The position numbers and the translations under genes were made by a program. Of a stretch of 41,975 nucleotides of DNA, positions 3,264-41,975 are shown in pieces. Numbering within the stretch: position 1 is the stretch's first letter; the number at the start of each line of letters is the position of its first letter. Source of the DNA: Candidatus Avispirillum sp. (GTDB lineage: Bacteria > Bacillota > Clostridia > Oscillospirales > CAG-272); assembly GCA_045632025.1 (NCBI GenBank), contig JAZQVW010000140.1, positions 1-41,975 of the forward strand, written 5' to 3'. The notes below the pieces were generated by a model, which was not told the origin of the DNA, ran no database searches, and was given only the letters and a program-made list of their open reading frames with translations.

Positions 3264-3370
3264 ACGTAGGGCGGGGGTCTACTCCCGCCGTTATTAATGC
3301 AATCTTACGTTTTGCATTTTATAATTTTGTTTGTGTTTTATGGCGGCGGGAGCGAGCCCCCGCCCTACGG
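3264..3370. repeat. Inverted pair of a ~28-nt GC-rich hairpin unit (ACGTAGGGCGGGGGTCTACTCCCGCCGTT / CGGCGGGAGCGAGCCCCCGCCCTACGG)
   Basis: 3264-3292 and 3344-3370 are near reverse complements separated by an AT-rich ~50-nt spacer. A third copy lies at 5810-5837. Confidence 0.75.
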
Positions 3371-5766: not shown

Positions 5767-5809
5767 ATAAAACGGACGACCGATGCTGAATTATAGAATT
5801 GTATTAAAA

Positions 5810-5910
5810 CGGCGGGAGTAAACCCCCGCCCTACGTTATCAAATTTTGTGTAAGCCAAGCCCAGACTCCTCACCCACCGCAAAGCGGTCCCCCCTCCCCC
5901 AGGGGAGGGC
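5810..5910. repeat. GC-rich palindromic repeat cluster (unit 1 copy plus ~54-nt unit 2 copy)
   Basis: 5810-5837 CGGCGGGAGTAAACCCCCGCCCTACGTT matches the reverse complement of 3264-3292. 5857-5910 is the reverse complement, with a few substitutions, of 39706-39758. Confidence 0.8.
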
Positions 5911-11576: not shown

Positions 11577-13577
11577 ATGAAAGGTTTTTTTGAAAATCTG
11601 CTTTTTCATATAAAACGAAGAGTGCCTGCCATTGTGGCAAGTGCTTTCATTTTGTGCGCCTTTGCCCTTTACTATTTTGGAATTTATGATATCTCCTTTA
11701 TAAAGCGTCCCGATGCCTGGATGGATAATGCAACTCTGTTTTACGATGCTATGGACGAGATCTTCGGGCGCGAGGAGGAAACCACTCCCGCTCCTGAAAC
11801 AGAACCCGTAGAAACAGAGGATCCCGAAACAAAGCCCCTTGAAACAGAGCCTCAGGAGACAACACCTCCCGAAACAGAGCCTGAGGAAACTACTCCTCCC
11901 GAAACTGAGCCCGAGGAAACAAAGGATCCCGAGATCACACCCTCTACCGTTATGCCCACGGTCAGTCAGCTTGAGGCAGAGGATTTTTCTCTTACGGACA
12001 CTCCCTACGGAGAGGGCCATAAATTTGCGCTCCTTAAGACCTCGTATAAGCTTCCCAATAAGCTTTCCTTCAGAGATAAGACCTACAAAAAGAACGAGGT
12101 CGTTTCCTATGACGACGGTAAGCTCTCCGAAATAAAAACAGTTACCGTTACAGAGGACAGACTTGCCATAGAGCTTTATATGGGCTATATCCTCTACGAC
12201 GACGGCGGTAAGCTTTATCTTCTTGATTCAAAGGGAAATGCCCTCACCAAATACGACGACAAGGAGTTTATACCCGCTTATACAAGAGACAGAGAGGGAC
12301 GTCCTCTTTTCTATCAGGTAGTAGAGGAAACTATTGAATATCCCACCGAGTACGGCGAATTGGACGAGGAGGGCAAGCGCCCTTGGCTGAAGACCGCCAA
12401 GCTTAAGGTTGATAAGAAAAAATATTTCTATCTTGACGAGGACGGCAAGACCTTTACGGAAAGCACATACAACGATGCGACCGACAACAGAGGTCTTTAC
12501 TTTGACTATCCCGCATATTACGGTATCACCGACGAGGACGATACCGAAAAGGGCCTCGTTCGCTATTTCAAATATGCAACCAAAATACTTACACAGACAG
12601 TGACTGAAAAGGGCAAGGAGAAAAAGATCACATCCCTTGTTGACGTTGTCAGCTGGCTCTTTGACGAAAAAATAGAGCTTCCCGAGGACGAAAAGACCGA
12701 AGGGAAGACGGAAAAGACAGAGGAAACCACCGCTGTTGATTCAAGCGAAACAACACCCGATGGCGAGGAGATCAAATCTCCGCTTCAGCAGAAGGTTGAA
12801 GAGCTTCTTGAGGGGCAGGAGTTCCTCTATTCAAAGGCTTACGATTACAAGGAAGGCCATGCCGTTGTTCTTCGCGACGTTACCTGGAGCTATAAGGACC
12901 CCGACCTCTCAAAGGCTGAGGCTGATAAGGCTGAGCCCATTGAAGTGACTGCGCCCGAGATTCAGGTTATTGACGAAGAAGGTAAGGTAATGTTCACATC
13001 CCGCAAGAGCTTCACAAGCGACCTCGGCTGGAATGCAAACGAATACTACACCGAGCCGCTTCTTCGCGATATCTCCTCCATCGGAAGCTATTATTTTGAC
13101 CACGGACTTCTCCGAATCCGACTCGTTTCCTACGACAGATATCAGTATATCAAATACGATATGTTTATGGTCGGCACGGATGACGACCTGCTTATCCGCC
13201 CCGACGGAACAAGATTCTATATCCCTGCAGGCTATAAGCTTGAAGGATATTCCGACGGAATGCTCCTCCTCTCAAGAAACGGCCTTTACGGCTATATGAA
13301 CTACAGAGGAAAATGGGTGGTCGAGCCCGAGCTTAAATACGGCGGCGCATTCGTTGAGGGCGTTGCCGCTATCCAGACAAGCGACGGTAAATGGGGTATG
13401 ATAGACACAAACGGCAATGCCGTTATCCCCTTTAAATATTCCTACGTTTCCAATATCTCAAGCGGCGTCGTTGCAGCCTACAGCGACAGCACGGGCTGGG
13501 AAATATACCATAAGATGGCCGTTATTGAGGATGAAGAGGACAAAGACGATAAAAAAGACAACAAAAAAGCTAATTAA
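11577..13577 (+). CDS. Membrane-anchored WG-repeat protein
   Basis: N-terminal TM helix, T/E/P-rich linker and C-terminal KWG-type repeats (GLYGYMNYRGKWVVEP…DGKWGMIDTNGNAVIPFKY). Confidence 0.8.
   Translation: MKGFFENLLFHIKRRVPAIVASAFILCAFALYYFGIYDISFIKRPDAWMDNATLFYDAMDEIFGREEETTPAPETEPVETEDPETKPLETEPQETTPPETEPEETTPPETEPEETKDPEITPSTVMPTVSQLEAEDFSLTDTPYGEGHKFALLKTSYKLPNKLSFRDKTYKKNEVVSYDDGKLSEIKTVTVTEDRLAIELYMGYILYDDGGKLYLLDSKGNALTKYDDKEFIPAYTRDREGRPLFYQVVEETIEYPTEYGELDEEGKRPWLKTAKLKVDKKKYFYLDEDGKTFTESTYNDATDNRGLYFDYPAYYGITDEDDTEKGLVRYFKYATKILTQTVTEKGKEKKITSLVDVVSWLFDEKIELPEDEKTEGKTEKTEETTAVDSSETTPDGEEIKSPLQQKVEELLEGQEFLYSKAYDYKEGHAVVLRDVTWSYKDPDLSKAEADKAEPIEVTAPEIQVIDEEGKVMFTSRKSFTSDLGWNANEYYTEPLLRDISSIGSYYFDHGLLRIRLVSYDRYQYIKYDMFMVGTDDDLLIRPDGTRFYIPAGYKLEGYSDGMLLLSRNGLYGYMNYRGKWVVEPELKYGGAFVEGVAAIQTSDGKWGMIDTNGNAVIPFKYSYVSNISSGVVAAYSDSTGWEIYHKMAVIEDEEDKDDKKDNKKAN
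11836..11925 (+). repeat. Three tandem ~30-nt units encoding the ETEPxETTPP linker
   Basis: CCTCCCGAAACAGAGCCTGAGGAAACTACT is followed directly by CCTCCCGAAACTGAGCCCGAGGAAACAAAG and preceded by a more diverged copy. Confidence 0.6.
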
Positions 13578-22131: not shown

Positions 22132-22171
22132 AAAAACTCCGCTGCAAAAGCGTGATGTCCTTAACGGAGAA
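22132..22171. repeat. attL of the integrated element (outer arm is the left half of a terminator stem, inner arm is the element end)
   Basis: AAAAACTCCGCTGCA-AAAGC-GTGATGTCCTTAACGGAGAA is the reverse complement of 33620-33658 except for the 5-nt centre and one arm mismatch. Confidence 0.8.
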
Positions 22172-22378
22172 AACGAAAAACCGAATAGGATAACAGAGAA
22201 AGGCAGCATAGTCTATGATGGCTATGCTGTCTTTTGCATTGTTTGATTATAGAAAAGTGAACTTGATTGAAAGCGTCGCAGAAATGCGGTGTTTTTTTGA
22301 ATATTATATCGAAAATCACTGGACTTGTGGAAAGTGTTGTGGTATGTGTTTGTGTTGCAAAAAGGAGGTGCAACGCAC

Positions 22379-22663
22379 ATGACAACACTTGAAGATCTGT
22401 ATTACGGTAACATCAGTCCGCACGAAAGGTACATAAAGCGCGGTTCGAGAGTCGATCAACTCGTAAAGCTCATATGCAAAAACGAGGAAAGCCTAACGGC
22501 AACGCTCACTGAGCAGCAGAAAGAAACCTTCGAAAAGTTTAAAGACTGCCAAAGCGAACTTGCAGGGTTAACCGAGCGAGATGCGTTCAGGGATGGCTTC
22601 ATCCTTGCAGTGCGAATAATGGTCGAAGCGATGGAAGGGTTAGAAACGGTGGATGACATATGA
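22379..22663 (+). CDS. Small element-backbone protein, hypothetical
   Basis: ATG at 22379 after AAAGGAGG. MTTLEDLYYGNISPHE… resembles, from memory only, a family common on clostridial transposons/ICEs. Its stop overlaps the next start. Confidence 0.6.
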   Translation: MTTLEDLYYGNISPHERYIKRGSRVDQLVKLICKNEESLTATLTEQQKETFEKFKDCQSELAGLTERDAFRDGFILAVRIMVEAMEGLETVDDI

Positions 22664-23370
22664 AAAAACTAATAATCCTTATTCTCTGCTGTGGGGTGGT
22701 GCTTGTGAGTATGGTGGGATGCGGTGGCAACACCGCACCACCGCCTACCGAGAGTCCATCAACAACGGTATCGAAAACGATAATAACAGAAACACCTACC
22801 GAAACAACACTGCCTGTAACGGCGGTAGAGCCAACTGAGCAAGAAAAAGAGCCTGTTCCCACCGAGGACAAGGAACCGGCAACCGAGACGACCGTGACCG
22901 CCACAGAGCCAACAACGACACAGCCAACAGAAAAAGCAACGACCACTGTAACAAACACCGCTAATGAAAAGGTTACTCTTCCGATTGAGAAAACCGTTGA
23001 AAGCACAACACCGCAGCTTACAGAAAGCGAAACGTCGGAAGCTGAACCGCCAAAAGAAGAACCAAAATGCGAAACGGAACCTATGAGGGTGACCGAGCCG
23101 GAACCTACAGAAAGGCCTGCTCCCTTTGATATCGACTACTGGATCGCATACGCAAGGAGCTACGCCGAAAGCAAAGGACTTATACTGAGCGATACGGCGG
23201 TGGATTGTTGGGACAACCCCGTCCGAGCAGGCGCACACTGCATTTTCCTCGAAAGAGATATTCAAAGCCGGCTTGACCGCTATGCAAAGGATGAGGACAT
23301 CGCCGATGTGTGGATCTGGGCAGAAGCCACGGACAACGACTGCTATGACATTTATATCGGCTACGCTTAA
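22660..23370 (+). CDS. Lipoprotein with T/P/E-rich linker and a small C-terminal globular domain
   Basis: Signal peptide with lipobox (LVSMVGC), a low-complexity linker and a C-terminal DIDYWIAYARSYAESKGL… domain. Confidence 0.75.
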   Translation: MKKLIILILCCGVVLVSMVGCGGNTAPPPTESPSTTVSKTIITETPTETTLPVTAVEPTEQEKEPVPTEDKEPATETTVTATEPTTTQPTEKATTTVTNTANEKVTLPIEKTVESTTPQLTESETSEAEPPKEEPKCETEPMRVTEPEPTERPAPFDIDYWIAYARSYAESKGLILSDTAVDCWDNPVRAGAHCIFLERDIQSRLDRYAKDEDIADVWIWAEATDNDCYDIYIGYA

Positions 23371-23447
23371 AAACAAAATAATTCCAAAACCAGGGCACTC
23401 ACTGGACGCGGCAATCCAACAGAGAAAACAAGAAACGAATAGGCCTA

Positions 23448-23482
23448 AAAATTCTGCTTAACATGGGCAGAATTTTTGTTTT
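23448..23482 (+). terminator. Intrinsic terminator at the backbone/cargo boundary
   Basis: AAAATTCTGC/GCAGAATTTT stem followed by TGTTTT. Confidence 0.65.
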
Positions 23483-23502
23483 ACAACATTTTCTCAAATT
23501 AA

Positions 23503-23531
23503 TTGAAATATTCACGATTTCGTGATATAAT
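23503..23531 (+). promoter_or_regulatory. Promoter with embedded perfect palindromic operator
   Basis: TTGAAA (23503-08), 17-nt spacer, TATAAT (23526-31). The spacer contains TCACGA-TT-TCGTGA (23512-23525). Confidence 0.7.
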
Positions 23532-23557
23532 ATAGACCAATGAAAGAGGGGGTCGTT

Positions 23558-23770
23558 ATGGCTGTATCTTATAAAAAGTTATTTCATTTGCTGATCGACA
23601 AGGGGATGACCAATGCTGAGTTGATGGAGAAAGCTGGCTTTAGTGCAAATATCATTACCCGAATCAAGCGTGACAATTATATTTCTCTCGATAGCATTGA
23701 GAAGATTTGCAAAACTCTGAACTGCGGTGTCGATGATATCTTAGAGTTCACCATGGAGGAAGAAGAATGA
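23558..23770 (+). CDS. XRE/Cro-type helix-turn-helix regulator (~70 aa)
   Basis: MTNAELMEKAGFSANIITRIKRDNYISLDSIEKICKTLNC is a classic HTH. The ATG at 23558 follows GAGGGGG, whereas the alternative ATG at 23540 would be almost leaderless. Confidence 0.85.
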   Translation: MAVSYKKLFHLLIDKGMTNAELMEKAGFSANIITRIKRDNYISLDSIEKICKTLNCGVDDILEFTMEEEE

Positions 23771-26727
23771 ATAATATTGCAGTAAAATTTATAGGCAAAG
23801 AATATTCCATACCAAAGGATGTTATAACCTATATTGATTTGCTTGATTTTGCTGATAACGTTCAGAAACAGTTAATGGCAGATTTTATCTCTATAATCAA
23901 AGGCAGAATTCAAAACAAAAATGTTGGTTTGATTGACGACGAGGATTTGCGAGCACAGATTGAAAAGCAAGTTGGACGATTTATTGCCAAACTTTGCGAT
24001 CAAGGGATTTTTACACGTACAGTTAACGACTATCTTAACGGTAACAAGGGATATGAGTATTTCTCCAAGGTAAATAAAGCGGCTCTCGAAAAGGTTAAAT
24101 CTTTTCTTATGCAGAGATTGGATTCTTTGCAAGAAGGTTATGAAGATGCTGTCCAAAGAGCTGAATCACATGTTACTGGAATGGGATTTTCTATTTGGTC
24201 GAGTAGCTTTGTTAATCATGCCATTTATGCTGCAATGGAAGCTTCCACCATCAACAAACAGGAAAAAGAAGCTTCTGCAAGATATCAAAAAGAAATTAGT
24301 GAACTGTGTTCCAAATTGGAGTCAGAATACGATAGAGCGACCAGTCAATATATAAACAATGAATATATCCCCAATATGGAAGCAGCACTTACTGTATTGG
24401 CTTATGAGTTGCTTGATAAATACGTGAACGATCTGATTGCAAACGATAAATTTGATAGAAGAACATTGGGATTCGTTGACATTAGCCGTTCAAATGATCT
24501 GTTGAAAAACCTAACCCTATCCAACAGCAAACAGGCTATACTCGAAAATGCTTTTGTCGCCTGCCCTTACAACATAGCTGTTTATATGCACGCAATGAAA
24601 TTGGAAATGTTGGATGAAGATACTTTTGAAACAGCCAATGTTTTCAAGCAAGGTTCAAAAATTATTTCGTTTTTGAAAGAATCTTTGGGTACGGCTGATT
24701 ATCCCAACTTTGTTGAGCCGAATTATTACAGTGCTTCTTTGTTGGCACGTTACGAAAATAAAAGCGCGAATGATGTCCTGTATCAGCACACAGCCTCTTA
24801 TGCAAATGCTGTGATTAGAGAGTATGAAAAAATTGTTAGAGCACTCGATAATCTCAATCAATGCAGGGACTACTTGCGCAAATTGAATGATGATGAGATT
24901 TTGTTAGGAGAAGGAACCTCAAAACGATTGGCAAAATCACTTGTTTATTCGATTGCACCGAATGACAACTGGAATATTCTTATGAAACAATGTGGTCACG
25001 CTGATCTGCTCGAAAGATTATTGGCTATTATGCCTGTAGGTTCGACCTTTGGAAGTAAAGAGGATTGCGATTCCTATTTAACGGAAGCTTTGTTCAATGC
25101 GTTGGAAGTAGCCCGTAAAGATTTGGCTCAAAGGATTTCAGAGAGCAGAGCTCGTGCTGAAGCCGAACGACAGAAACTTGAGGCGCAAAAAAGAAAGAAA
25201 CGTATTAAGACAACAGCTATTTTGTGTGCAATCGTTGCTGTTATTATTGTTGCTTTCTCTTTGCCCTCCATAATAGAAAATGCAAAGATCTTAAAAAGAG
25301 AAAGTTGTGTTGAAAAACAAATTCAAGCAGTAGTTGAACCATTAGAAAGCAAAATGGAGAATGCTACCGGCGTTGACATTATTATCGATTACTACTTCTC
25401 TTTGGAAAATGATTGGGACGACGAACAGTGGTATGAATGGACGTTTAGTGTTGAACTTCCTATTTTTGATGAATACAGAAAATCCAACAGCGCAAACGAG
25501 CAATCACTGTTAGAAGTAATGGATGTTTGCAAATCTCTTGTTGAAATTTATGATGATGTTTACGATGATTTAGATTTTGACTTCAAGGACGAAGATGTAA
25601 GAATTGTAATGGACTTTTCTGGTGGAAATTTCGGTTCGCTAAAAATCCATGATACATCTACATCAGAAACATTCTATTACGAAGAATATGGCGGAGATCG
25701 TTATCTTCATTCCTCTGATACTGAATATGTATTAGACAAAAATTCCGAAGTTGTTCAAGCGACAGAAAAGGAAGCAGCGTACAATGATGCCCTTTCTCTT
25801 ATGACTGCCCAAAAATATGATGAGGCTATTGAGATATTTGCAAAATTAAGTGGATATAAAGACAGTGTTGGCAAAATTACTGAATGTGAAAATGCTATCA
25901 TCGAATTAAAGTATAATGATGCTCTTGCTTTGATGTCTGCGCAAAAATATGACGATGCTATTATCATATTCACGGAATTGGGAGAATACAAAAACAGCGC
26001 ATCCAAGATAGTCGAATGTAACGAAGCTATTGCAGCCGTTATCGAAGCAAAATATAACGAAGCATCTTCTCTTATAGTCGAAGGAAAGTACAACGAAGCC
26101 TTATTGATTCTTGATGAAATCGGCGATTATAAAGATGCAGTTGCTTTGAAACAAAAATATGCGCTTCTCACCTGTGAATCTGGAGATGTTATCACATTTG
26201 GAACATACGAACAAGACAACAATCTTGATAATGGTGCAGAAGCTATCGAGTGGCTTGTTTTGAACAGAGACGGCAACAAGGCTCTTGTAATAAGCAAGTA
26301 TTGCCTTGAGCAAATGCCTTTCAACAACACTTTAGCGTCAGTTACATGGGAAAATTGTACAATTAGAAAGTGGCTCAATAACGATTTCTTTGATACAGCG
26401 TTTTCTACAGATGAAAAAACCTCGGTCCTTGTGTCGAATATCAGCTACCCGGATGATGTGGACCACGAAGAACCGACAAGAACAACAAAGGATAGAATTT
26501 TCCTTCTTAGCGAGAACGAAGCATTAGTGTATTTTGACTCGGATTCTGAAAGAGCAACGCAAACGACTGAATATGTTGGAGCTTTGCATTGTTACTGGAT
26601 TCTTCGTACAAATGGAAGTGTTTCTAACGTTGCCCATGTTGATACTTCTGGGTATGTGGGTTACTACGAAAATGTTGACCGTGAATGGTATATTCGTCCA
26701 GCCATGTGGATTGAGACAAGCGAGTAA
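23767..26727 (+). CDS. 986-aa single-pass membrane protein: ~475-aa helical cytoplasmic domain of unknown function, TM helix, and an extracellular region with three ~45-aa repeats and a DUF6273-like C-terminal domain
   Basis: Its start overlaps the HTH stop (ATGA), with a GGAGGA RBS. The TM segment is TTAILCAIVAVIIVAFSLPSII, preceded by a KRKKR cluster. The repeats have the form YNDALxLMxAQKYDxAIxIFxxLGxYKDS. The C-terminus (GDVITFGTYEQD…IEWLVL…IRKWLNNDFF…RIFLLSENE…YWILR…IRPAMWI) matches, from memory, a domain common in Firmicutes surface proteins. Confidence 0.8.
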   Translation: MNNIAVKFIGKEYSIPKDVITYIDLLDFADNVQKQLMADFISIIKGRIQNKNVGLIDDEDLRAQIEKQVGRFIAKLCDQGIFTRTVNDYLNGNKGYEYFSKVNKAALEKVKSFLMQRLDSLQEGYEDAVQRAESHVTGMGFSIWSSSFVNHAIYAAMEASTINKQEKEASARYQKEISELCSKLESEYDRATSQYINNEYIPNMEAALTVLAYELLDKYVNDLIANDKFDRRTLGFVDISRSNDLLKNLTLSNSKQAILENAFVACPYNIAVYMHAMKLEMLDEDTFETANVFKQGSKIISFLKESLGTADYPNFVEPNYYSASLLARYENKSANDVLYQHTASYANAVIREYEKIVRALDNLNQCRDYLRKLNDDEILLGEGTSKRLAKSLVYSIAPNDNWNILMKQCGHADLLERLLAIMPVGSTFGSKEDCDSYLTEALFNALEVARKDLAQRISESRARAEAERQKLEAQKRKKRIKTTAILCAIVAVIIVAFSLPSIIENAKILKRESCVEKQIQAVVEPLESKMENATGVDIIIDYYFSLENDWDDEQWYEWTFSVELPIFDEYRKSNSANEQSLLEVMDVCKSLVEIYDDVYDDLDFDFKDEDVRIVMDFSGGNFGSLKIHDTSTSETFYYEEYGGDRYLHSSDTEYVLDKNSEVVQATEKEAAYNDALSLMTAQKYDEAIEIFAKLSGYKDSVGKITECENAIIELKYNDALALMSAQKYDDAIIIFTELGEYKNSASKIVECNEAIAAVIEAKYNEASSLIVEGKYNEALLILDEIGDYKDAVALKQKYALLTCESGDVITFGTYEQDNNLDNGAEAIEWLVLNRDGNKALVISKYCLEQMPFNNTLASVTWENCTIRKWLNNDFFDTAFSTDEKTSVLVSNISYPDDVDHEEPTRTTKDRIFLLSENEALVYFDSDSERATQTTEYVGALHCYWILRTNGSVSNVAHVDTSGYVGYYENVDREWYIRPAMWIETSE
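25777..26175 (+). repeat. Three tandem ~135-nt coding repeats (TPR/Sel1-like helical hairpins)
   Basis: AAYNDALSLMTAQKYDEAIEIFAKLSGYKDSVGKITEC / KYNDALALMSAQKYDDAIIIFTELGEYKNSASKIVEC / KYNEASSLIVEGKYNEALLILDEIGDYKDAVALKQKY. Confidence 0.7.
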
Positions 26728-26770
26728 CAAAGCCTTCCGTATTTGCATTCTTGTAATGGAGGTGACTAAA

Positions 26771-27409
26771 ATGAATGTCAAAGATTGGGGACAACGTATT
26801 TCTCACAGAACAGATATAAGCATGGGGCTTGTTCATCTTACCAAAGGAGACAGAGAACTTAGTTCTCTTGCTGTTTTGATGAAAATTCTCGAAGAAAAAA
26901 CAATATTGGGCAGCACAAACAAAATAGTAGGCGGACATCCAAGAGGGTTTATATGTGGTAGTGATCCCGTTGTTTGCTTTCAAGATGTTCCTTTACATTC
27001 TCTCTCAGAAAACATTTTTTGGGAACAGCAACTACATGATAAAACCCCGGAAGCGCCAATAAGGTATGCTCCTTTTGGACTACGCTTTGATAAAAGGTAT
27101 GTTTTTAGAAATGGCGGAAGGCCTGTCATTTACGAGGATACCAACATCGCAAAAAATTTTCTTCCCGAAAATGAATACTGGCGAATTGTTAAACTCGATT
27201 TGGACAGCGACGATAATATTGTTGACTGGACACATGAACGAGAATGGCGAATCAAGGGAGATTTTCATTTCGAACTTAGTGAGGTAGAAATTCTTCTAAG
27301 CGACCAAACTTCTCTAAAGAAATTCAACAGATACTGCAAAGAGAAGAATATGGAGAACCTTCTAAATGAAATTAAAGGAATTGTGATTCTCAAAAGCCTT
27401 CTGTTCTAA
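26771..27409 (+). CDS. AbiGi-like (abortive-infection family) protein, 212 aa
   Basis: ATG at 26771 lies 7 nt after GGAGGTG. The blocks VVCFQDVPLHSLSENI, YAPFGLRFDKRYVFRNGGRPVIYED and WTHEREWRIKGDF parallel the C-F-x-D-x-P / YG-x-G-I / P-V-x-Y / EREWR pattern I recall for AbiGi-type proteins. Confidence 0.6.
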   Translation: MNVKDWGQRISHRTDISMGLVHLTKGDRELSSLAVLMKILEEKTILGSTNKIVGGHPRGFICGSDPVVCFQDVPLHSLSENIFWEQQLHDKTPEAPIRYAPFGLRFDKRYVFRNGGRPVIYEDTNIAKNFLPENEYWRIVKLDLDSDDNIVDWTHEREWRIKGDFHFELSEVEILLSDQTSLKKFNRYCKEKNMENLLNEIKGIVILKSLLF

Positions 27410-27413
27410 GTCC

Positions 27414-27467
27414 AGTTATGGAGCACTTCGTTCGTTGTTCGGATGAGGTGCTCCATAACTATTTTTC
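27414..27467 (+). terminator. Strong intrinsic terminator splitting the cargo into two units
   Basis: 13-bp perfect stem AGTTATGGAGCAC/GTGCTCCATAACT followed by ATTTTTC. Confidence 0.7.
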
Positions 27468-27515
27468 AGTTGATGTTACTTGTCGTGAATACAAAATATA
27501 ACTTTGGAGGAAAAA

Positions 27516-28118
27516 ATGGAACTCATTATTACATTCTTAGAATCAAACTTGTTGTCTGCACTTGTTTCTGCAGTTGTTTCCGGTCTCATTGCCATAATAG
27601 GTATTCGCTTATCTTACAAGCTCTCTGTGAGCGAAACACAGAAGGCAATGGAGTATTTTAAGTCTCAGCTCACCAAGAAAGTTTATGCTTCCTCGAAACG
27701 TTCTGATATGGAATATGAGATATTCCATACGTTAGGGAGAATCTGCGGTGAGATTCATTTAGTCATGGAACGCTTTTACCCCGACAAGATGAGCTTGCTT
27801 TTATTGAACAGTGCGGAAAAGCCTACTCTAAAAGAATTGGCTAACAAAATCCATGACCTGGATATAGAATTAAATATTCATAGGGCCTTTATTCCAAAAG
27901 AAATTGTGACACTGTTTGAAGAGCTAATAAAAGACGCAGAGCAATTTTTTGATGATGCAGAAAAGCATATTGATTGTTGGGATGATACAAAGGACGATAA
28001 AAACAGAAAAGAAAAACTACGATGCACTGCCTATGAAAAGAGATTAGCATTTTACGAAAAATGGAAGTCTTCAAGTGCAAAATGTCTGGAATATCTACAG
28101 TCAAAAGAATTGGTGTAA
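27516..28118 (+). CDS. Small membrane-anchored helical protein, hypothetical (200 aa)
   Basis: ATG at 27516 lies 5 nt after GGAGG. One N-terminal TM helix (LLSALVSAVVSGLIAIIGI). The rest is charged and helical with no known motif. Confidence 0.6.
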   Translation: MELIITFLESNLLSALVSAVVSGLIAIIGIRLSYKLSVSETQKAMEYFKSQLTKKVYASSKRSDMEYEIFHTLGRICGEIHLVMERFYPDKMSLLLLNSAEKPTLKELANKIHDLDIELNIHRAFIPKEIVTLFEELIKDAEQFFDDAEKHIDCWDDTKDDKNRKEKLRCTAYEKRLAFYEKWKSSSAKCLEYLQSKELV

Positions 28119-28163
28119 AATCTGATTTTGATAAATAGTATTTTTCAAAAGGAGGGGCAATGT

Positions 28164-29747
28164 TTGAATATTAGAGATATTGAAAAAATAATAGACGATG
28201 CACACAAAGGACACGAAATTTTCAAAATGAATAAAGAGCAGGCAATTTATTCTACATTATCGACATTTGAATATTCGTGCAGTTCGGTAATGATGGCAAG
28301 TGTCTTAAATCCGTTTGCATTAAAAAGCATTACTGATCTAATGGACGCATTGAATATGGCGTTGACATGGATAAATGAACTGTGTCCCGTTTCCGACGAC
28401 GGCACTATCCAATTGGAGATGTCCGAGGAATGTAATCAACAGTGCTGTGACTTCTTGCACAATCACGCTTACCCCTATTCTGTGATTTGCAGCGGATACA
28501 TAGCGTACTCAAGAAAACGCTTCAAAGCAAATGTTGTCGATAATTGCGTTACCTTTGATCTGGCTGACAATCAAAACAATTCGGCATGGAATGATATTCT
28601 CAGAGAAGCTACGAGTAATGATTTAAGTAGCCTGTCTGCCCTCGTTAATCCTTATGAATTGTTGCGAGCAAGCGGCGAGATAAAAAAACATACCACTATA
28701 GAAAACGGAATGTTGTGCTACGCTCTATCTGGCGATGTTTTCGATGCTTTTGAAAAGATGGCACGTGCTCATTGGGAAGCCGCAAAGACTTTGCCAGAAA
28801 ACTGGAAGTTTGAGAAATTTTCTTTGGCTGAGTATAAAGAGTTTTGGATTGCTTTAACTTCCTTGTGCTATGTGCATCTTTGCAGTTGCTTTAGCATTGA
28901 AGAACAGTTGCTCAAATTGAAAAATAGTACTATAGTACAAAACAAGCAATGCATTGTTAATTTCATCAAATCTCGAACCAAACTTGACGAAAACAAGATA
29001 CTGACGCTCATTGACTACATTACTTATGAGCCGCAAAAAACAAATGTTGATATCATGTACCAACCCATAGTAGCTTTGAATGATAGTACTATAATCATCA
29101 CTCCTACTCTTTTTATGGGATCTCGTCCTGAACGAAATTTACTATCAGTTGTAAGCACAAGGAAAGATAAGGAATACTTCAACGAAGTTAACGATTTGGA
29201 AGGTTTGATGGTCTCAGAGTTGGAATCCTATGTGAAATCAGAATACATAGCAAAGCATAAACATTTGCGTGATGATTTGCCTGATCTTGATTTCGCAGTT
29301 TTAGATAAAGAGACTAACTCAGCTTTGATTTGCGAAACAAAGTGGTTTGCTCCTGCTGATTCTTCAAAAGAGGTTTACGCCAAGGAAGATGAAATAAATC
29401 ATGGATGTCAGCAAGTTGAGGATATCATGTCTTATGCTATGGCTGACAAAAAGCATTTCTTCAAGCAAGTGTTTGGTGTTGAGAATGGAGAGACGATTGA
29501 CCTGTTTTGGTGTGTTGTTGCAAAACACAACATTCGAACGCAAAACAGAATTGTTCCGGTAATAGATTTGAAGAGAATCGAAGACTTGTTTTCTTCAAAT
29601 TCTCTTAATACTGTTTTTCATCTCATACGCAACCATGAATATGAAATTAAGATGCCCGATGATGTTTCGATTACACATCAAGAAGTAGAATACGCTGGTT
29701 TTAAGTTCAAAATTCCTGCGCTTTGTTTGGGAAATATGCCAGAATAA
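28164..29747 (+). CDS. ~527-aa protein with a C-terminal PD-(D/E)xK nuclease-like motif and a large uncharacterised N-terminal region
   Basis: An in-frame TTG at 28164 lies 8 nt after GGAGG; the ORF-track start at 28128 is also possible. The C-terminal region has ELE…LPDLDFAVLDKETNSALICETKWFAP…CQQVEDIMSY, meaning E, PD, ExK and a downstream Q..Y, as in restriction-endonuclease-fold/Shedu-type domains. Confidence 0.65.
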   Translation: MNIRDIEKIIDDAHKGHEIFKMNKEQAIYSTLSTFEYSCSSVMMASVLNPFALKSITDLMDALNMALTWINELCPVSDDGTIQLEMSEECNQQCCDFLHNHAYPYSVICSGYIAYSRKRFKANVVDNCVTFDLADNQNNSAWNDILREATSNDLSSLSALVNPYELLRASGEIKKHTTIENGMLCYALSGDVFDAFEKMARAHWEAAKTLPENWKFEKFSLAEYKEFWIALTSLCYVHLCSCFSIEEQLLKLKNSTIVQNKQCIVNFIKSRTKLDENKILTLIDYITYEPQKTNVDIMYQPIVALNDSTIIITPTLFMGSRPERNLLSVVSTRKDKEYFNEVNDLEGLMVSELESYVKSEYIAKHKHLRDDLPDLDFAVLDKETNSALICETKWFAPADSSKEVYAKEDEINHGCQQVEDIMSYAMADKKHFFKQVFGVENGETIDLFWCVVAKHNIRTQNRIVPVIDLKRIEDLFSSNSLNTVFHLIRNHEYEIKMPDDVSITHQEVEYAGFKFKIPALCLGNMPE

Positions 29748-29940
29748 ATCGGAACACTGTTGGCTCGCCACCAACGGTGTTCTCGTTCTCATAAAACTAT
29801 CATTGGCAGCGTTGACAGGAAATAATGCTGTAAAAAATATATCCTCTCATACATGACAACTGAATCTAAATGTTTGACCATACGGATATTCACCTATAAT
29901 TTGTAATATCTTCAAATCTATTTGGATAACATAAAATTTC

Positions 29941-29971
29941 AAAAGGCACCGCTTCGGCGGTGCCTTTGCTT
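29941..29971. terminator. Bidirectional intrinsic terminator at the right cargo boundary
   Basis: AAAA-GGCACCGC-TTCG-GCGGTGCC-TTTGCTT. A second, 12-bp hairpin lies at 29752-29782 directly after the nuclease gene. Confidence 0.7.
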
Positions 29972-30023
29972 ATGCCTAAACAGAATAGTATTCCCGTTTT
30001 TCTTGCACTTTATTCACCCTACC

Positions 30024-30053
30024 TTGACAAAAGTTTCCTGCGTATGGTATAAT
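30024..30053 (+). promoter_or_regulatory. Near-consensus extended -10 promoter
   Basis: TTGACA (30024-29), 18-nt spacer, TGgTATAAT (30045-53). Confidence 0.7.
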
Positions 30054-30059
30054 AAAGAC

Positions 30060-30283
30060 ACCGAGAGATCGGATGAAAAATGAATATTAAGTGCCACGAC
30101 AGTTACCACTGTCACCCCGTCGCTTGAAAGACAGCGACATACTTATTTATCTGCTCATTTAGAGCAAGCACTAATTAGAGTTATAGACTCGTACATACAT
30201 CGGCACGGAACATTTTTAAGCGAACAATTTTGTTCGCCTGTTTGTGTTTCCGTATCGATGTATGTGCGAGTCTTTTTGTTTTG
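30060..30283 (+). ncRNA. Candidate ~220-nt structured RNA (or terminator-containing leader) of unknown class
   Basis: It starts just after the promoter. Five hairpins are present: 30061-72, 30098-113, 30119-138, 30152-166, and a ~28-bp-arm hairpin at 30185-30273 enclosing GCGAACA/TGTTCGC. It ends in TTTTTGTTTT. The only ORF is 5 codons long. Confidence 0.5.
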
Positions 30284-30371
30284 CTCTCGCCGTGATTACA
30301 TAAAAATCGAAAGGTGGAATGCAGATGATTGTATCAAAATTTAGAATCAACAAAAACGAAAGGAGGATCGG

Positions 30372-30659
30372 ATGCAACACAAAAATTTCTTTATGGTTCC
30401 CAACCGCATCTTTGATTTAGAACTAAAGCCGAGGGACTTCACCGTGTATTGCTGTCTGCTTCGGCACAGTGACAGCAAGGACGGCTCCTGCTTCCCCTCG
30501 CGGAGAGTCATCGCAAAGGAGTGCGGTATGGATAGGAAAACCGTTGACTCTGCCATTGAAAATCTCTCGTCCCTTGGTCTGGTGAAAAAGATTCAGCGGC
30601 ACCGAGAGGATGGAACGAGAACGAGCAATCTCTACTACGTGGCAAACCTCTTGGAGTAG
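30372..30659 (+). CDS. Winged-helix/HTH protein of the element backbone (replication-initiator-like HTH)
   Basis: AAAGGAGG RBS. FFMVPNRIFDL…FTVYCCLLRHSD…CFPSRRVIAKECGMDRKTVDSAIENLSSLGLV is typical of HTH proteins found next to serine recombinases on clostridial elements. Confidence 0.7.
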   Translation: MQHKNFFMVPNRIFDLELKPRDFTVYCCLLRHSDSKDGSCFPSRRVIAKECGMDRKTVDSAIENLSSLGLVKKIQRHREDGTRTSNLYYVANLLE

Positions 30660-31165
30660 AGTGAATTTTTCATCGGGATAGTGTCAGAATTTCCTATCAA
30701 GAAGAAAACCCATAGAACAAAACCCAGGAATTACTACAACAGAAAAAGAGAAAAGATAACCACCACGGAGCGCCCATGTGTCGCCCACAGACCGCCTGTG
30801 TGCCGAGGAACGCAGAGATGCGAGGAAACACCCGACCAAAAGAAAACCGCCCGTTTGGGGCGATTTGAGGGCAAGGTTGGAACGGCAAAATGAGGTGTGA
30901 TGTAAGGCAGCTTTCAGGCATTTTCGATGGGTCGAAAATCAAGCAGGAGAAAGAGTCGGGGTCGTAAACGCCCCTCGACTCGGGTCACAGCGGACGGCAA
31001 CGCCGACCGCACAAGGGTTTTTGGCATTTTCGTTCTTTTCCCGAAGTGGTACCACTTTCGAGGATAAGGAGTCAATTTAGGCGGTGTGGAGTGCCAAAAG
31101 TGCCGTGAAACAAGGAAAATCATAGGCGACAATATAGGTGTCGTAAGCGGAAAGGAGAATTTACT

Positions 31166-31570
31166 ATGGCTACTAACAACAAAATCAAGTTTCCTTTTTG
31201 GGTAACACCAAAAACGATGGAAACCGTGAAAGAAATGTACAAGGACGATGATTGCCGGAGCCAATCGGAATTTATTGAGAAAGCGATAAACGCATATGTC
31301 GGCTATCTACGGGCAGATAACAGTCCAGGAATGCTGCCGAATTATATGGTCTCCACGATGAAGGCTATTGTGGACAGCAGCGAAACACGAATGTGCAGAA
31401 TGCTGTTCAAGCTGGCGGTGGAGATGGCGATCACGATGAACGTCCTCGCAGCTCACTGTGATATAGAAGAAGGAAGTCTTGCTAACCTTCGCCAAAGCTG
31501 TATCGACGAAGTGAAACGAATTAACGGAACGCTTGGATTTGAAGATGCCTACTATTGGCAGAAGGGCTGA
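31166..31570 (+). CDS. Element-backbone protein with a ribbon-helix-helix-like N-terminus, hypothetical
   Basis: AAAGGAG RBS. The RSQSEFIEKAINAY motif resembles CopG/RHH proteins. The position upstream of the recombinase suggests a regulatory or directionality role. Confidence 0.55.
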   Translation: MATNNKIKFPFWVTPKTMETVKEMYKDDDCRSQSEFIEKAINAYVGYLRADNSPGMLPNYMVSTMKAIVDSSETRMCRMLFKLAVEMAITMNVLAAHCDIEEGSLANLRQSCIDEVKRINGTLGFEDAYYWQKG

Positions 31571-31586
31571 GAAAGGAGAACGGAAC

Positions 31587-31790
31587 ATGGATTATGAATT
31601 ACTGAAAAAGCGCAGAGAGAAATATCTAAAATTACAGAGAGAATTAGAGGAAGAACAGCATATCGGTCTCGGTTACGTGCTGACCGTAGAGGGAAAGCAG
31701 TATCCCGTACTGTCTTGTTTCTCTGTCAGTGGAAAAACGGAAGAAGCAAAGGACAAACTGAAATACCTTATCAACGGTCGAAAAAGTTAA
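31587..31790 (+). CDS. Small (67 aa) element-backbone protein, hypothetical
   Basis: ATG at 31587 after AAAGGAG. It lies between the RHH-like gene and the recombinase, a position often occupied by small Tnp accessory proteins. Confidence 0.45.
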   Translation: MDYELLKKRREKYLKLQRELEEEQHIGLGYVLTVEGKQYPVLSCFSVSGKTEEAKDKLKYLINGRKS

Positions 31791-31866
31791 CAAAACTGTT
31801 TCAGCAAAGTCGCTGGACTACTCGACCGAGTTGTGATATGTTGTTGCCGTATCCTATTCGGTTTGA

Positions 31867-33567
<1,701 letters not shown>

Positions 33568-33619
33568 AAAGTAATAACCGGAAGGTTTTTACACCTTCCG
33601 GTTACATACCACCCACCAA

Positions 33620-33658
33620 TTCTCCGTTAAGAACATCACGGAAATGCAGCGGAGTTTT
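33620..33658. repeat. attR of the integrated element
   Basis: TTCTCCGTTAAGAACATCAC-GGAAA-TGCAGCGGAGTTTT is the reverse complement of attL apart from the core. Confidence 0.8.
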
Positions 33659-41205: not shown

Positions 41206-41975
41206 ATGAAAAAGGAACACATTCTCATAGTTTGTGTTGTTCTTGTTATATGTCTTTGTGTCGTTTTTGATATTGCATTTGCAAGCAGATTTGCAGTCAA
41301 TGAAAAAACGGACGATGCGGAAATCGAGACGACCGTAACTGAAACAGAGCCCGAAACTGAAACTGATCCTCCCGAAACAACTGCTCCTCCCGTAGTTGAA
41401 ACGGAGCCCGAGGAATACAAGTCTCCCATTGATTTTGAAGCTCTCTACGCTGAAAACGAGCATATATATTCCGTTATTAAGATAGAAAACACAAACATCA
41501 ACTTTCCCATCGTTCAGCATCCCACGGATAAAACCTTCTATCTGAGACGCGGTCTTGATAAGAAATACGACGTTTACGGCAGCGTTTTCACGGAGCACGT
41601 TTATAACACTACTGATTTTTCAGACCCCGTTACAATGATCTACGGACACGACACCAGAAACGGAAAAATGTTCGGCGATCTTCACACCATGTATTACGAA
41701 GAGCTTACAACTCATGGTGAGATCGTAGTATATCTCCCCGAAAAGGAGCTTCACTATCAAGTTTTTGCCGCAGTTGTTCATGATAAGCGCCACGTGCTTT
41801 ATTATAACGACTTCACAAACCCCGGCGTTTTCAACAGCTTCTTTGGAAAAGTTTTTGAAAAGGAAGGCGAAAAGATGGTTGTTGATAAGGAATGTGAGCT
41901 TTCTCCCGACGATAAGATCATTATTCTCTCAACCTGCGTTGAAAACCGACCCGATAACCGCTTCCTCGTTATGGC
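41206..41975 (+). CDS. srtB: Class B sortase (3' end lies outside the window)
   Basis: This gene is absent from the ORF track because it runs off the window edge. ATG at 41206 after AGGAGGA. N-terminal TM helix and T/E/P linker, then IENTNINFPIVQHPTDKTFYLRRG, GSVFTEH, VTMIYGHDTRNGKMFGDL and IIILSTC, which contains the catalytic Cys. Confidence 0.8.
   Translation, partial: MKKEHILIVCVVLVICLCVVFDIAFASRFAVNEKTDDAEIETTVTETEPETETDPPETTAPPVVETEPEEYKSPIDFEALYAENEHIYSVIKIENTNINFPIVQHPTDKTFYLRRGLDKKYDVYGSVFTEHVYNTTDFSDPVTMIYGHDTRNGKMFGDLHTMYYEELTTHGEIVVYLPEKELHYQVFAAVVHDKRHVLYYNDFTNPGVFNSFFGKVFEKEGEKMVVDKECELSPDDKIIILSTCVENRPDNRFLVM

Follow-up and report, generated by a model that had tools for sequence, protein, structure and literature searches.

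We analysed a 41,975-nucleotide stretch of contig JAZQVW010000140.1 from Candidatus Avispirillum sp. (hereafter the window), in which a block of five genes, g1 to g5, lies within a mobile element that encodes a large serine recombinase. The recombinase carries Resolvase, Recombinase, Zn_ribbon and DUF4368 domains (Pfam), and we take the element to be akin to the Tn4451/TnpX-type large-serine-recombinase mobilisable transposons; in the copy studied here we saw no gene for mobilisation. All five genes are open reading frames (ORFs) on the plus strand, and together they fill the block (Table 1; gene starts were refined by ribosome-binding site). An initial annotation, made from the sequence without database searches, had described the block (23503-29790) as AT-rich cargo and as a candidate undescribed defence-type locus that combines a membrane sensor-like protein, an Abi-family protein and a nuclease.

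Table 1. Genes and regulatory features of the cargo block, by position in the window.
Feature	Position	Strand	Details
Hairpin terminator, left cargo edge, closing the upstream backbone genes	23446..23478	+	-14.6 kcal/mol, z -5.1, then T-run
Sigma-70-type promoter TTGAAA-17-TATAAT	23503..23531	+	11/12 consensus, TG before it
Palindrome TCACGA-TT-TCGTGA (6+2+6) in the promoter spacer; candidate g1 operator TCACGATTTCGTGA	23512-23525		perfect palindrome
g1, 70-aa XRE/Cro-C1-type helix-turn-helix (HTH) regulator	23558..23770	+	HTH_26 7e-17
g2, 986-aa single-pass membrane protein	23767..26727	+	DUF6273 at residues 837-983, 1.6e-23; one transmembrane (TM) helix at about 483-505
g3, 212-aa AbiGi-family protein	26771..27409	+	PF10899 23.6-23.8 bits vs cut-off 22.4
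Intrinsic-terminator-like hairpin and T-run, g3/g4 gap	27415..27459	+	20-bp stem, -34.5 kcal/mol, z -9.4
g4, 200-aa protein with N-terminal TM anchor at about residues 7-34	27516..28118	+	transmembrane scan
g5, 527-aa protein, TTG start	28164..29747	+	predicted C-terminal PD-(D/E)xK core at about 335-527; D374, D376, E391, K393
Hairpin terminator closing the cargo block	29942..29967	+	GGCACCGC-TTCG-GCGGTGCC core, -21.6 kcal/mol, z -5.2

The block is set apart from its surroundings by composition. Its computed G+C content is 0.376, against 0.474 (22147-23400) and 0.477 (30300-33644) in the two arms of the element backbone and 0.459 in the remainder of the window, and a sliding-window scan bore out the predicted drop, with values of 0.45-0.51 giving way to 0.33-0.41 over the interval of about 23500-30000. 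The step is therefore real and sharp (0.376 vs 0.47-0.48), although the contrast of one third versus one half that had been judged by eye somewhat overstated it. The G+C content at third codon positions (GC3) differs in the same way, being 0.33-0.38 in g2 to g5 and 0.47-0.65 in backbone and host genes; within the block g1 is the exception, with a backbone-like value of 0.49. Because of these contrasts in G+C and GC3, we regard the block as foreign cargo carried by the serine-recombinase element, as the initial annotation had proposed. The hairpins at both of its edges are far more stable than shuffled sequence.

None of the five genes was assigned a housekeeping, transfer or unrelated metabolic function in profile searches, and family-library searches found no methyltransferase, helicase, P-loop, reverse transcriptase, cyclase, TIR or SIR2 domain in any of the products. 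The block also fits no named system layout: none was matched in PADLOC 2.0, where the five proteins returned only a weak AbiGi match (g3), generic control-protein HTH matches (g1) and a chance-level SIR2 match (g5, E 0.019). A named family (AbiGi) could be assigned to g3 alone, and the second gene of that system is missing. A sequence-profile search of the PDB gave nothing for g2, g3, g4 or g5, exact-protein look-ups of g2 and g5 (two start choices) returned no match, and neither the plasmid nor the phage collections contained near-identical DNA. Several gut-type metagenome assemblies do contain fragments almost identical to the g2-g3-g4 region (L001-L004; comparison loci are designated by such numbers).

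A hairpin in the gap between g3 and g4, absent from the initial annotation, is much stronger than either of the edge hairpins, and the five genes are therefore divided into two transcription units, g1-g2-g3 and g4-g5. This hairpin and a leader of about 55 nucleotides (nt) 5' of g4 are kept in another element (L051) although the upstream gene there differs; the hairpin marks the 5' boundary of a g4-g5 module.

The first gene of the block appears to form part of a regulatory head. Besides HTH_26, g1 matches HTH_3 (2e-5) and a VanU-like family (4e-13, under the NCBIfam cut-off), and its stop codon overlaps the start codon of g2 (ATGA). Of the earlier description as an autoregulated XRE HTH protein, the regulator class stands; a palindrome does lie in the spacer of the g1 promoter, and from its position we infer that g1 probably binds there and represses its own promoter. 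A gene of the HTH_26 type is found directly 5' of g2 homologues in four loci (L030, L033, L034, L036). In L034 g1 is 95% identical, but g2 is 44% and the DUF6809 protein 42% identical, and the upstream terminator, promoter, palindrome and g1 of the window (23446-23770) are nearly identical to L034 7640-8004. Moreover, the 90%-identity cluster of g1 has 453 members, one of them found on 777 contigs, whereas that of g2 has 11. On the strength of these differences, we conclude that g1 behaves like a conserved head, with exchange of the cargo behind it, and the cassette of terminator, promoter, palindrome and g1 looks, from its sequence conservation, like a recombination landing pad or a cargo exchange point. 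On elements that bear DUF6809, a family for which we found no literature account, HTH_26 heads of this kind do precede other cargos.

One such alternative cargo was seen in L051 (4170-10232) and in L052-L056, on an element with DUF6809, MobC and AAA_25 genes. It consists, in order, of genes for a 165-aa protein, a 337-aa DZR zinc-ribbon protein, a 458-aa protein with Band_7_1 and GYF_2 domains and a 187-aa protein, followed by g4 and g5. The four genes 5' of g4-g5 may represent another uncharacterised defence-type module.

The product of g2 has a receptor-like layout, in keeping with the earlier description of a membrane protein with a large cytoplasmic domain. An all-helical domain (residues 1-480), which the positive-inside rule would place in the cytoplasm, is followed by the single TM helix and by an ectodomain with TPR-like repeats that ends in DUF6273. 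In an AlphaFold2 (AF2) model, residues 1-500 are all-helical with a predicted local distance difference test score (pLDDT) of 88.9; this region gave no PDB fold match at E<=0.001 (Foldseek) and no family match in Pfam, PADLOC, NCBIfam or PHROGs, and weak matches to folds resembling alpha-pore-forming toxins were set aside as noise from long helices. An internal repeat of the gene (25779-26030; two 120-nt copies, 70% identical, 132 nt apart) codes for the TPR-like units of the ectodomain, of about 44 residues each (KYN[DE]A..L...KYD[DE]AI..F..LG.YK[DN]S). Among at least 158 relatives, the N-terminal domain is kept and the ectodomain is swapped, the alternatives being DUF6273, TPR, RCC1-like, RHS, Sel1 and LRR. 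DUF6273 has been described from receptor-binding proteins of gut phages as a C-type-lectin-like domain that binds ligands (PMC10743442; bioRxiv 10.1101/2024.10.15.618418). We considered a diversity-generating retroelement (DGR) acting on the DUF6273 of g2 and rejected it, as the window contains no reverse transcriptase and no pair of template and variable repeats; the only repeat to consider was the internal 132-nt one of g2.

The gene that follows g2 differs from locus to locus. It is g3 in the window, a Shedu gene in L005 and two genes for small membrane proteins in L030, and there is nothing in L101; in L029 and L034 it is a split ORF containing RNNETH, and in L033 a 333-aa ORF containing RSEAIH. 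The latter ORFs, located with a regular expression for Rx4H (L029 4656-5543, L034 11571-12487, L033 2947-3948), carry motifs suggestive of HEPN RNases, and the gene seems to be split or frameshifted into two ORFs in L029 and L034. It could be imagined that the XRE gene and g2 form the sensor of a receptor-type immune system, with a swappable ectodomain (C-type lectin, TPR, RCC1, RHS or LRR) that detects phage on the outside of the cell and a conserved cytoplasmic domain that activates the effector encoded immediately 3', but we see only a slim chance of this. The effector slot would then be occupied by the gene resembling an ADP-ribosyltransferase (ART) in the window, by Shedu in L005, by the HEPN-like ORFs in L029, L033 and L034 and by the small membrane proteins in L030. 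Overall, the setting of g2 relatives is mixed across the loci examined, with partners other than g3 or with none.

The partnerless case is L101 (5993-9403), where a g2 homologue with a TPR ectodomain lies alone on a tyrosine-integrase/Mob_Pre element, between a divergent DUF6602 gene and convergent DUF6809 and TnpV genes. Mobilisable elements of more than one class thus carry members of the g2 family. The N-terminal domain of g2 had no plasmid match (tblastn).

The AbiGi likeness that had been noted for g3 was upheld, narrowly, by the Pfam threshold and more broadly by its family: PF10899 is matched by 22 of 32 relatives (best 7.9e-10), the PADLOC AbiGi model matches g3 at 2e-5, and tblastn against proteins annotated as AbiGi family aligned 76-91% of the query at 21-26% identity. 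Residues H22, Y121 and E156-R157-E158 (within EREWR) are invariant in 32 sequences of the g3 family, one of which is annotated as AbiGi family. A 2025 survey placed AbiGi and DUF2971 in the ADP-ribosyltransferase superfamily (DarT-like) by an H-Y-ExE pattern (PMC12522546). The motifs being present, g3 is probably a DarT-like ADP-ribosyltransferase. Its relatives are numerous (851 matches), are common in prophages and include stand-alone genes in 43 viral contigs, where they have no conserved partner, and in several plasmids; one relative lies beside the anti-phage gene Hhe in a cassette array on a Vibrio plasmid island. Residence of g3 relatives in defence islands is thus seen in part of the cases.

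In the second transcription unit, the transmembrane scan agreed with the earlier view of g4 as a small membrane-anchored protein. No match to g4 was obtained in the family libraries (Pfam, PADLOC, NCBIfam, PHROGs), in the PDB or in plasmids (tblastn), nor were relatives found outside its own clade. Where it does occur, it adjoins g5: the pair is conserved in L005 (64% and 85% identity for g4 and g5) and in L051-56 (90% and 92%), so that g4-g5 is found behind three different upstream sets, namely g2-g3 in the window, g2-Shedu in L005 and the 165-aa, DZR, Band_7_1+GYF_2 and 187-aa genes in L051-56. In contrast, g4 is absent from L010, where g5 is 87% identical and a different small XRE gene lies 5' of it, and from all more distant g5 loci. 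We suggest that g4 would serve as a clade-specific membrane tether or regulator.

The last gene, g5, belongs to a large family. A length of 527 residues from the TTG start agrees with that of its homologues; the 174 close ones are all of about 527-530 residues and lack any Pfam domain. At E<=1e-3 the family comprises 1,228 representative clusters (50% identity), nearly all of them full-length (520-600 residues) and mostly from gut Clostridia. No substitution of D374, D376, E391 or K393 occurs in 30 close homologues, and in 85 relatives with 17-42% identity the equivalent positions (D378, D380, E395, K397) retain at least 90% conservation. In the AF2 model of g5 (pLDDT 86.7; predicted template modelling score 0.83), DSSP assigned the core as H336-356, E361-366, E375-381, E386-393, H401-427 and E446-453 (H, helix; E, strand), an alpha-beta-beta-beta-alpha-beta arrangement with the motif residues on strands 2 and 3. 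Conservation of D..D..ExK down to 17% identity, together with this predicted helix-strand-strand-strand-helix-strand fold, substantiates the PD-(D/E)xK motif that the initial annotation had noticed at the end of the protein.

We found no specific match for g5 in Pfam, PADLOC, PHROGs, NCBIfam, PDB sequences or PDB folds. Foldseek returned none at E<=0.001 in the PDB or BFVD, none of the curated anti-phage models of NCBIfam 2026 was matched, and comparison of the g5 family profile with a HamA protein (hhalign) gave nothing. The remaining similarities were a weak match to Tn7 TnsA_C in Pfam (0.0058) and, by tblastn, one weak partial match each in plasmids and phages. As the fold search returned nothing significant for it, the region from residue 1 to about 330 has no recognisable precedent; in the model it is mostly helical and appears to be novel. 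A unit at about 245-315 (helix-strand-helix-helix-strand-strand) is possibly a winged helix, going by its DSSP topology alone. The name PDC-S12 was considered for the g5 superfamily and rejected: 11 of the 85 relatives match that profile, and the one match inspected (P0436) covers the last about 50 residues of the protein and positions 164-216 of the 218 in the profile, which fits a SEC-C-type zinc tail carried by a subset of members and lacking in g5. Our literature search for SEC-C combined with a restriction endonuclease fold and defence found nothing.

To place g5 in its genomic setting, about 21 non-redundant g5 loci were collected, and each was searched with g1 to g4 (tblastn). At least 10 of them have named defence genes no more than 6-10 kb away from g5. 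Gabija genes were found in L013 (GajA 1.5e-104 and GajB 5.4e-97, ending 15-40 bp before g5) and in L006, the latter also with a ResIII/RE_endonuc enzyme, Peptidase_U49 and WYL genes; Hachiman HamA with a DEAD helicase, SIR2_2/STALD, TIR_2 and FRG in L031; Avs4 (1.7e-40), AbiLi/PDC-M12A and PDC-M12B in L021; an AbiLi-like ATPase in L022; and PDC-S01 (4e-109) in L014. In L005 the place filled by g3 in the window is taken by a Shedu SduA_C gene, two genes 5' of the g5 homologue. Type I restriction-modification (R-M) genes are near g5 in L018, L025 and L026 (directly beside it in L018 and L026), and two C5 methyltransferase genes lie beside it in L010. At least five further loci place g5 at a prophage end or by serine recombinases (L007-9, L016, L017, L044-47). 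This survey agrees with the earlier expectation that relatives of the block genes sit in defence islands and prophages. It identifies g5, with or without g4, as a good candidate for a new defence nuclease.

In two of these loci (L006 5043-11587, L013 14-3874), g5 homologues with 60-61% identity lie directly 3' of two different Gabija variants, which could be an island coincidence or a functional pairing.

Alternatively, g5 might be a type IV-like restriction endonuclease whose N-terminal region reads the DNA and whose core cuts it constitutively, depending on modification or on some DNA feature, rather than an abortive effector triggered by infection. In favour of this, the D..D..ExK core is conserved, and g5 is a single polypeptide whose homologues often stand alone and whose block offers no cognate methyltransferase; the unit that resembles a winged helix in predicted topology would suit an enzyme of this kind, as would the neighbouring type I R-M genes (L018, L026) and C5 methyltransferases (L010). 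The loci flanked by R-M genes presumably resemble the 'immigration control' regions in which type IV enzymes sit. On the other hand, no modification-reading domain and no family of the Mrr, McrB or GmrSD type was found in g5 or its relatives (Pfam, NCBIfam, PADLOC, PDB), the fold search did not confirm the winged helix, and abortive-type neighbours (Gabija, Hachiman, Avs, AbiL) are equally frequent. We therefore consider constitutive type IV-like restriction by g5 unlikely.

The same loci bear on whether the five genes form one system. In that case g2 would sense infection, and g3, g4 and g5 would be effectors under the control of g1. The genes are co-directional, tightly spaced and share a low G+C content, and L005 keeps the order of g2, a nuclease gene, g4 and g5. 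However, identity between the window and L005 is uneven (g2 52%, g4 64%, g5 85%), the third slot there holds an unrelated Shedu gene, and a strong terminator separates g3 from g4. Among the about 21 g5 loci, g2 co-occurs with g5 only in L005, and g4 only in L005 and L051-56; a relative of g1 lies by g5 only in L051-56 (34% identity), while that of L026 is about 8 kb off. In about 20 loci g5 occurs without g1 to g3, and in L010 without g4. Apart from near-identical copies of the window locus, g3 is in no other g5 locus and is never found with g2, g4 or g5. What does co-occur are sub-modules (g1-g2, g4-g5 and, once, g2 with g4-g5), not the five genes as a set. Since the co-occurrence of g1 to g5 fails, g2 and g3 are found apart and the terminator splits g3 from g4, the proposal that membrane sensor, Abi protein and nuclease act as one mechanism has no comparative support, and we judge a five-gene defence system to be very improbable.

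Rather, we read the AT-rich block as a defence-island-like cargo hotspot of a large-serine-recombinase element, in which at least three independently moving modules are arranged in two transcription units, and we assign this reading a probability of roughly 60%. The looser proposal of the initial annotation, a defence-type locus with undescribed genes, is thereby supported by association, while its single-system part was not borne out.

Several observations weigh against the defence reading. The association of g5 with defence genes is a count that has no matched genomic background and comes from loci that were not chosen at random, and because there is no background control we treat it as a strong association rather than as a statistic; six g5 loci (L011, L012, L015, L019, L020, L023) have no recognised defence neighbour. 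The nuclease-fold matches of g5 are below threshold (E 0.07-0.5; the R2 endonuclease domain, Bax1 and phage nucleases, all PD-(D/E)xK). For g3, the AbiGi match is marginal for this sequence alone, and no single stretch of it passes by itself. A consensus scan of 27460-27515 gave no convincing promoter for g4-g5, whose expression may depend on read-through or on a promoter that the scan overlooked. Finally, no relatives of g2 were found in viral contigs, and g2 occurs on mobilisable elements without any adjacent effector; the role of g2 may thus lie with the element, as in exclusion or adhesion, and not with defence.

Taken further, these last points could mean that the block is not primarily anti-phage, with g2 acting in adhesion, host interaction or element exclusion and g5 serving mobile elements in competition, addiction or recombination. 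The lectin-like or repeat ectodomain of g2 is compatible with this, as is its presence on mobilisable elements of the DUF6809/TnpV type and on an integrative and conjugative element, in one case effectorless, and with this distribution a surface role in the service of the element fits g2 as well as defence does. In many loci, g5 also lies by serine recombinases at element ends. Yet the neighbours of g5 in chromosomal islands are mostly named defence systems and not recombination genes, g5 is missing from most copies of the backbone (the 90% cluster of the recombinase has 495 members, against 174 g5 homologues of any relatedness), and the AbiGi family, to which g3 belongs, was first defined through an anti-phage phenotype (PMC13064643). 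For the block as a whole, a function other than anti-phage defence is in our view distinctly unlikely.

In the mechanism that we propose for the cargo hotspot, the biochemical activities of all five products, and any anti-phage phenotype, are inferred. The first unit would begin at the 23503 promoter and end at the 27415 terminator, with g1 a small XRE repressor that probably acts on the palindrome in its own promoter. The g2 protein would be receptor-like, combining a conserved cytoplasmic domain with an interchangeable ligand-binding ectodomain, and g3 would act as a stand-alone DarT-like ADP-ribosyltransferase, probably modifying nucleic acid or protein during infection. In the second unit, g4-g5, the self-sufficient core would be g5, a putative DNA-targeting PD-(D/E)xK nuclease whose N-terminal region most likely reads an invader cue or DNA form and licenses cleavage, while g4 would be a clade-specific membrane-anchored accessory. 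It could be that g5 founds a widespread family of anti-phage nucleases that has no name as yet, in which g4 would be an optional membrane tether. If g5 does protect against phages or plasmids, this would add a large family of immune nucleases; as a single gene, g5 can be tested with little effort.

Other features of the window were noted outside the block. The segment just 3' of the cargo (30024-30290) has a sigma-70 promoter with a perfect consensus (TTGACA-18-TATAAT, 12/12). Between this promoter and an HTH_36 gene at 30372, a long and very stable hairpin (-55.8 kcal/mol, z -10.8) spans about 30185-30273, with a T-run after it; this region, which has no Rfam match, looks like a leader or attenuator for the regulatory and recombinase genes of the element itself. 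No Rfam family and no tRNA was found anywhere in the window. Short repeats at 11792-11930, 22877-22910 and 41318-41427 code for E/T/P-rich linkers in predicted surface or lipoprotein genes, comprising several host genes and the 236-aa lipoprotein of the element (22660-23370); these are low-complexity sequences and probably of no special significance. A G+C-rich repeat of 36 nt (GGCGGGAG...CCCCCGCC, 81% identical) occurs at two intergenic positions of the host region (3334-3369 and 5800-5835), and its copies are probably terminator hairpins.

The block illustrates how, in gut bacteria of the Lachnospiraceae type, small serine-recombinase elements reshuffle defence-type cassettes while the head of regulator and promoter in front of them stays near-invariant. 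The head of g1 and its promoter offers a practical handle for mining more cargo, and the g2 family represents an uncharacterised class of membrane proteins on mobile elements. At the same time, candidate defence genes like g5 are numerous, and nothing mechanistically surprising has emerged so far.

Among known systems, g5 is most readily compared with Shedu, which it resembles in joining a non-catalytic N-terminal region to a C-terminal D..ExK core in one polypeptide and in residing in defence islands and prophages. It differs in that PF14082 (SduA_C/DUF4263) does not match g5 and matches only one of 85 distant relatives (E 0.0056), in that hhalign of the g5 family profile with the Shedu protein of L005 gave a probability of 0.1, and in that g5 has no Foldseek match to solved structures. 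Furthermore, the N-terminal region of g5 is conserved family-wide, whereas that of Shedu-type nucleases is variable.

For g3, the comparison is with lactococcal AbiG, a two-gene system (PMC13064643). The EREW core of g3 and its H and Y positions recur in an AbiGi-annotated protein, but no AbiGii-like gene adjoins g3 (g2, g4 and g5 have no AbiGii match in Pfam or PADLOC), none lies next to its relatives in plasmids or in the 43 viral contigs, and the NCBIfam AbiGI equivalog model scores 14.9 bits on g3 against a cut-off of 300. The Pfam AbiGi family thus includes g3, but because AbiGii is missing, g3 is not part of an AbiG system. With ADP-ribosyltransferases of the DarT and DUF2971 type, the g3 family shares H22, Y121 and E156-x-E158, and one close homologue is annotated as DUF2971; unlike DarT, g3 has no DarG-like macrodomain antitoxin nearby, and no member of its family matches Pfam DUF2971 at E<=0.01.

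The ectodomain of g2 ends in DUF6273, a domain also present in DGR-diversified phage receptor-binding proteins (tentaclins, Mtd-like), but g2 is a predicted cellular membrane protein with a 480-residue cytoplasmic domain and not a virion protein. The locus as a whole resembles the cargo and defence hotspots of mobile elements in having interchangeable cargos behind an HTH_26 head and in its related elements with DUF6809 and TnpV, and differs in that its cargo consists of several uncharacterised defence-type genes and not of a resistance gene. What is new here is an unnamed nuclease family (g5) and an uncharacterised receptor-like family (g2), inside an otherwise familiar kind of cargo island.

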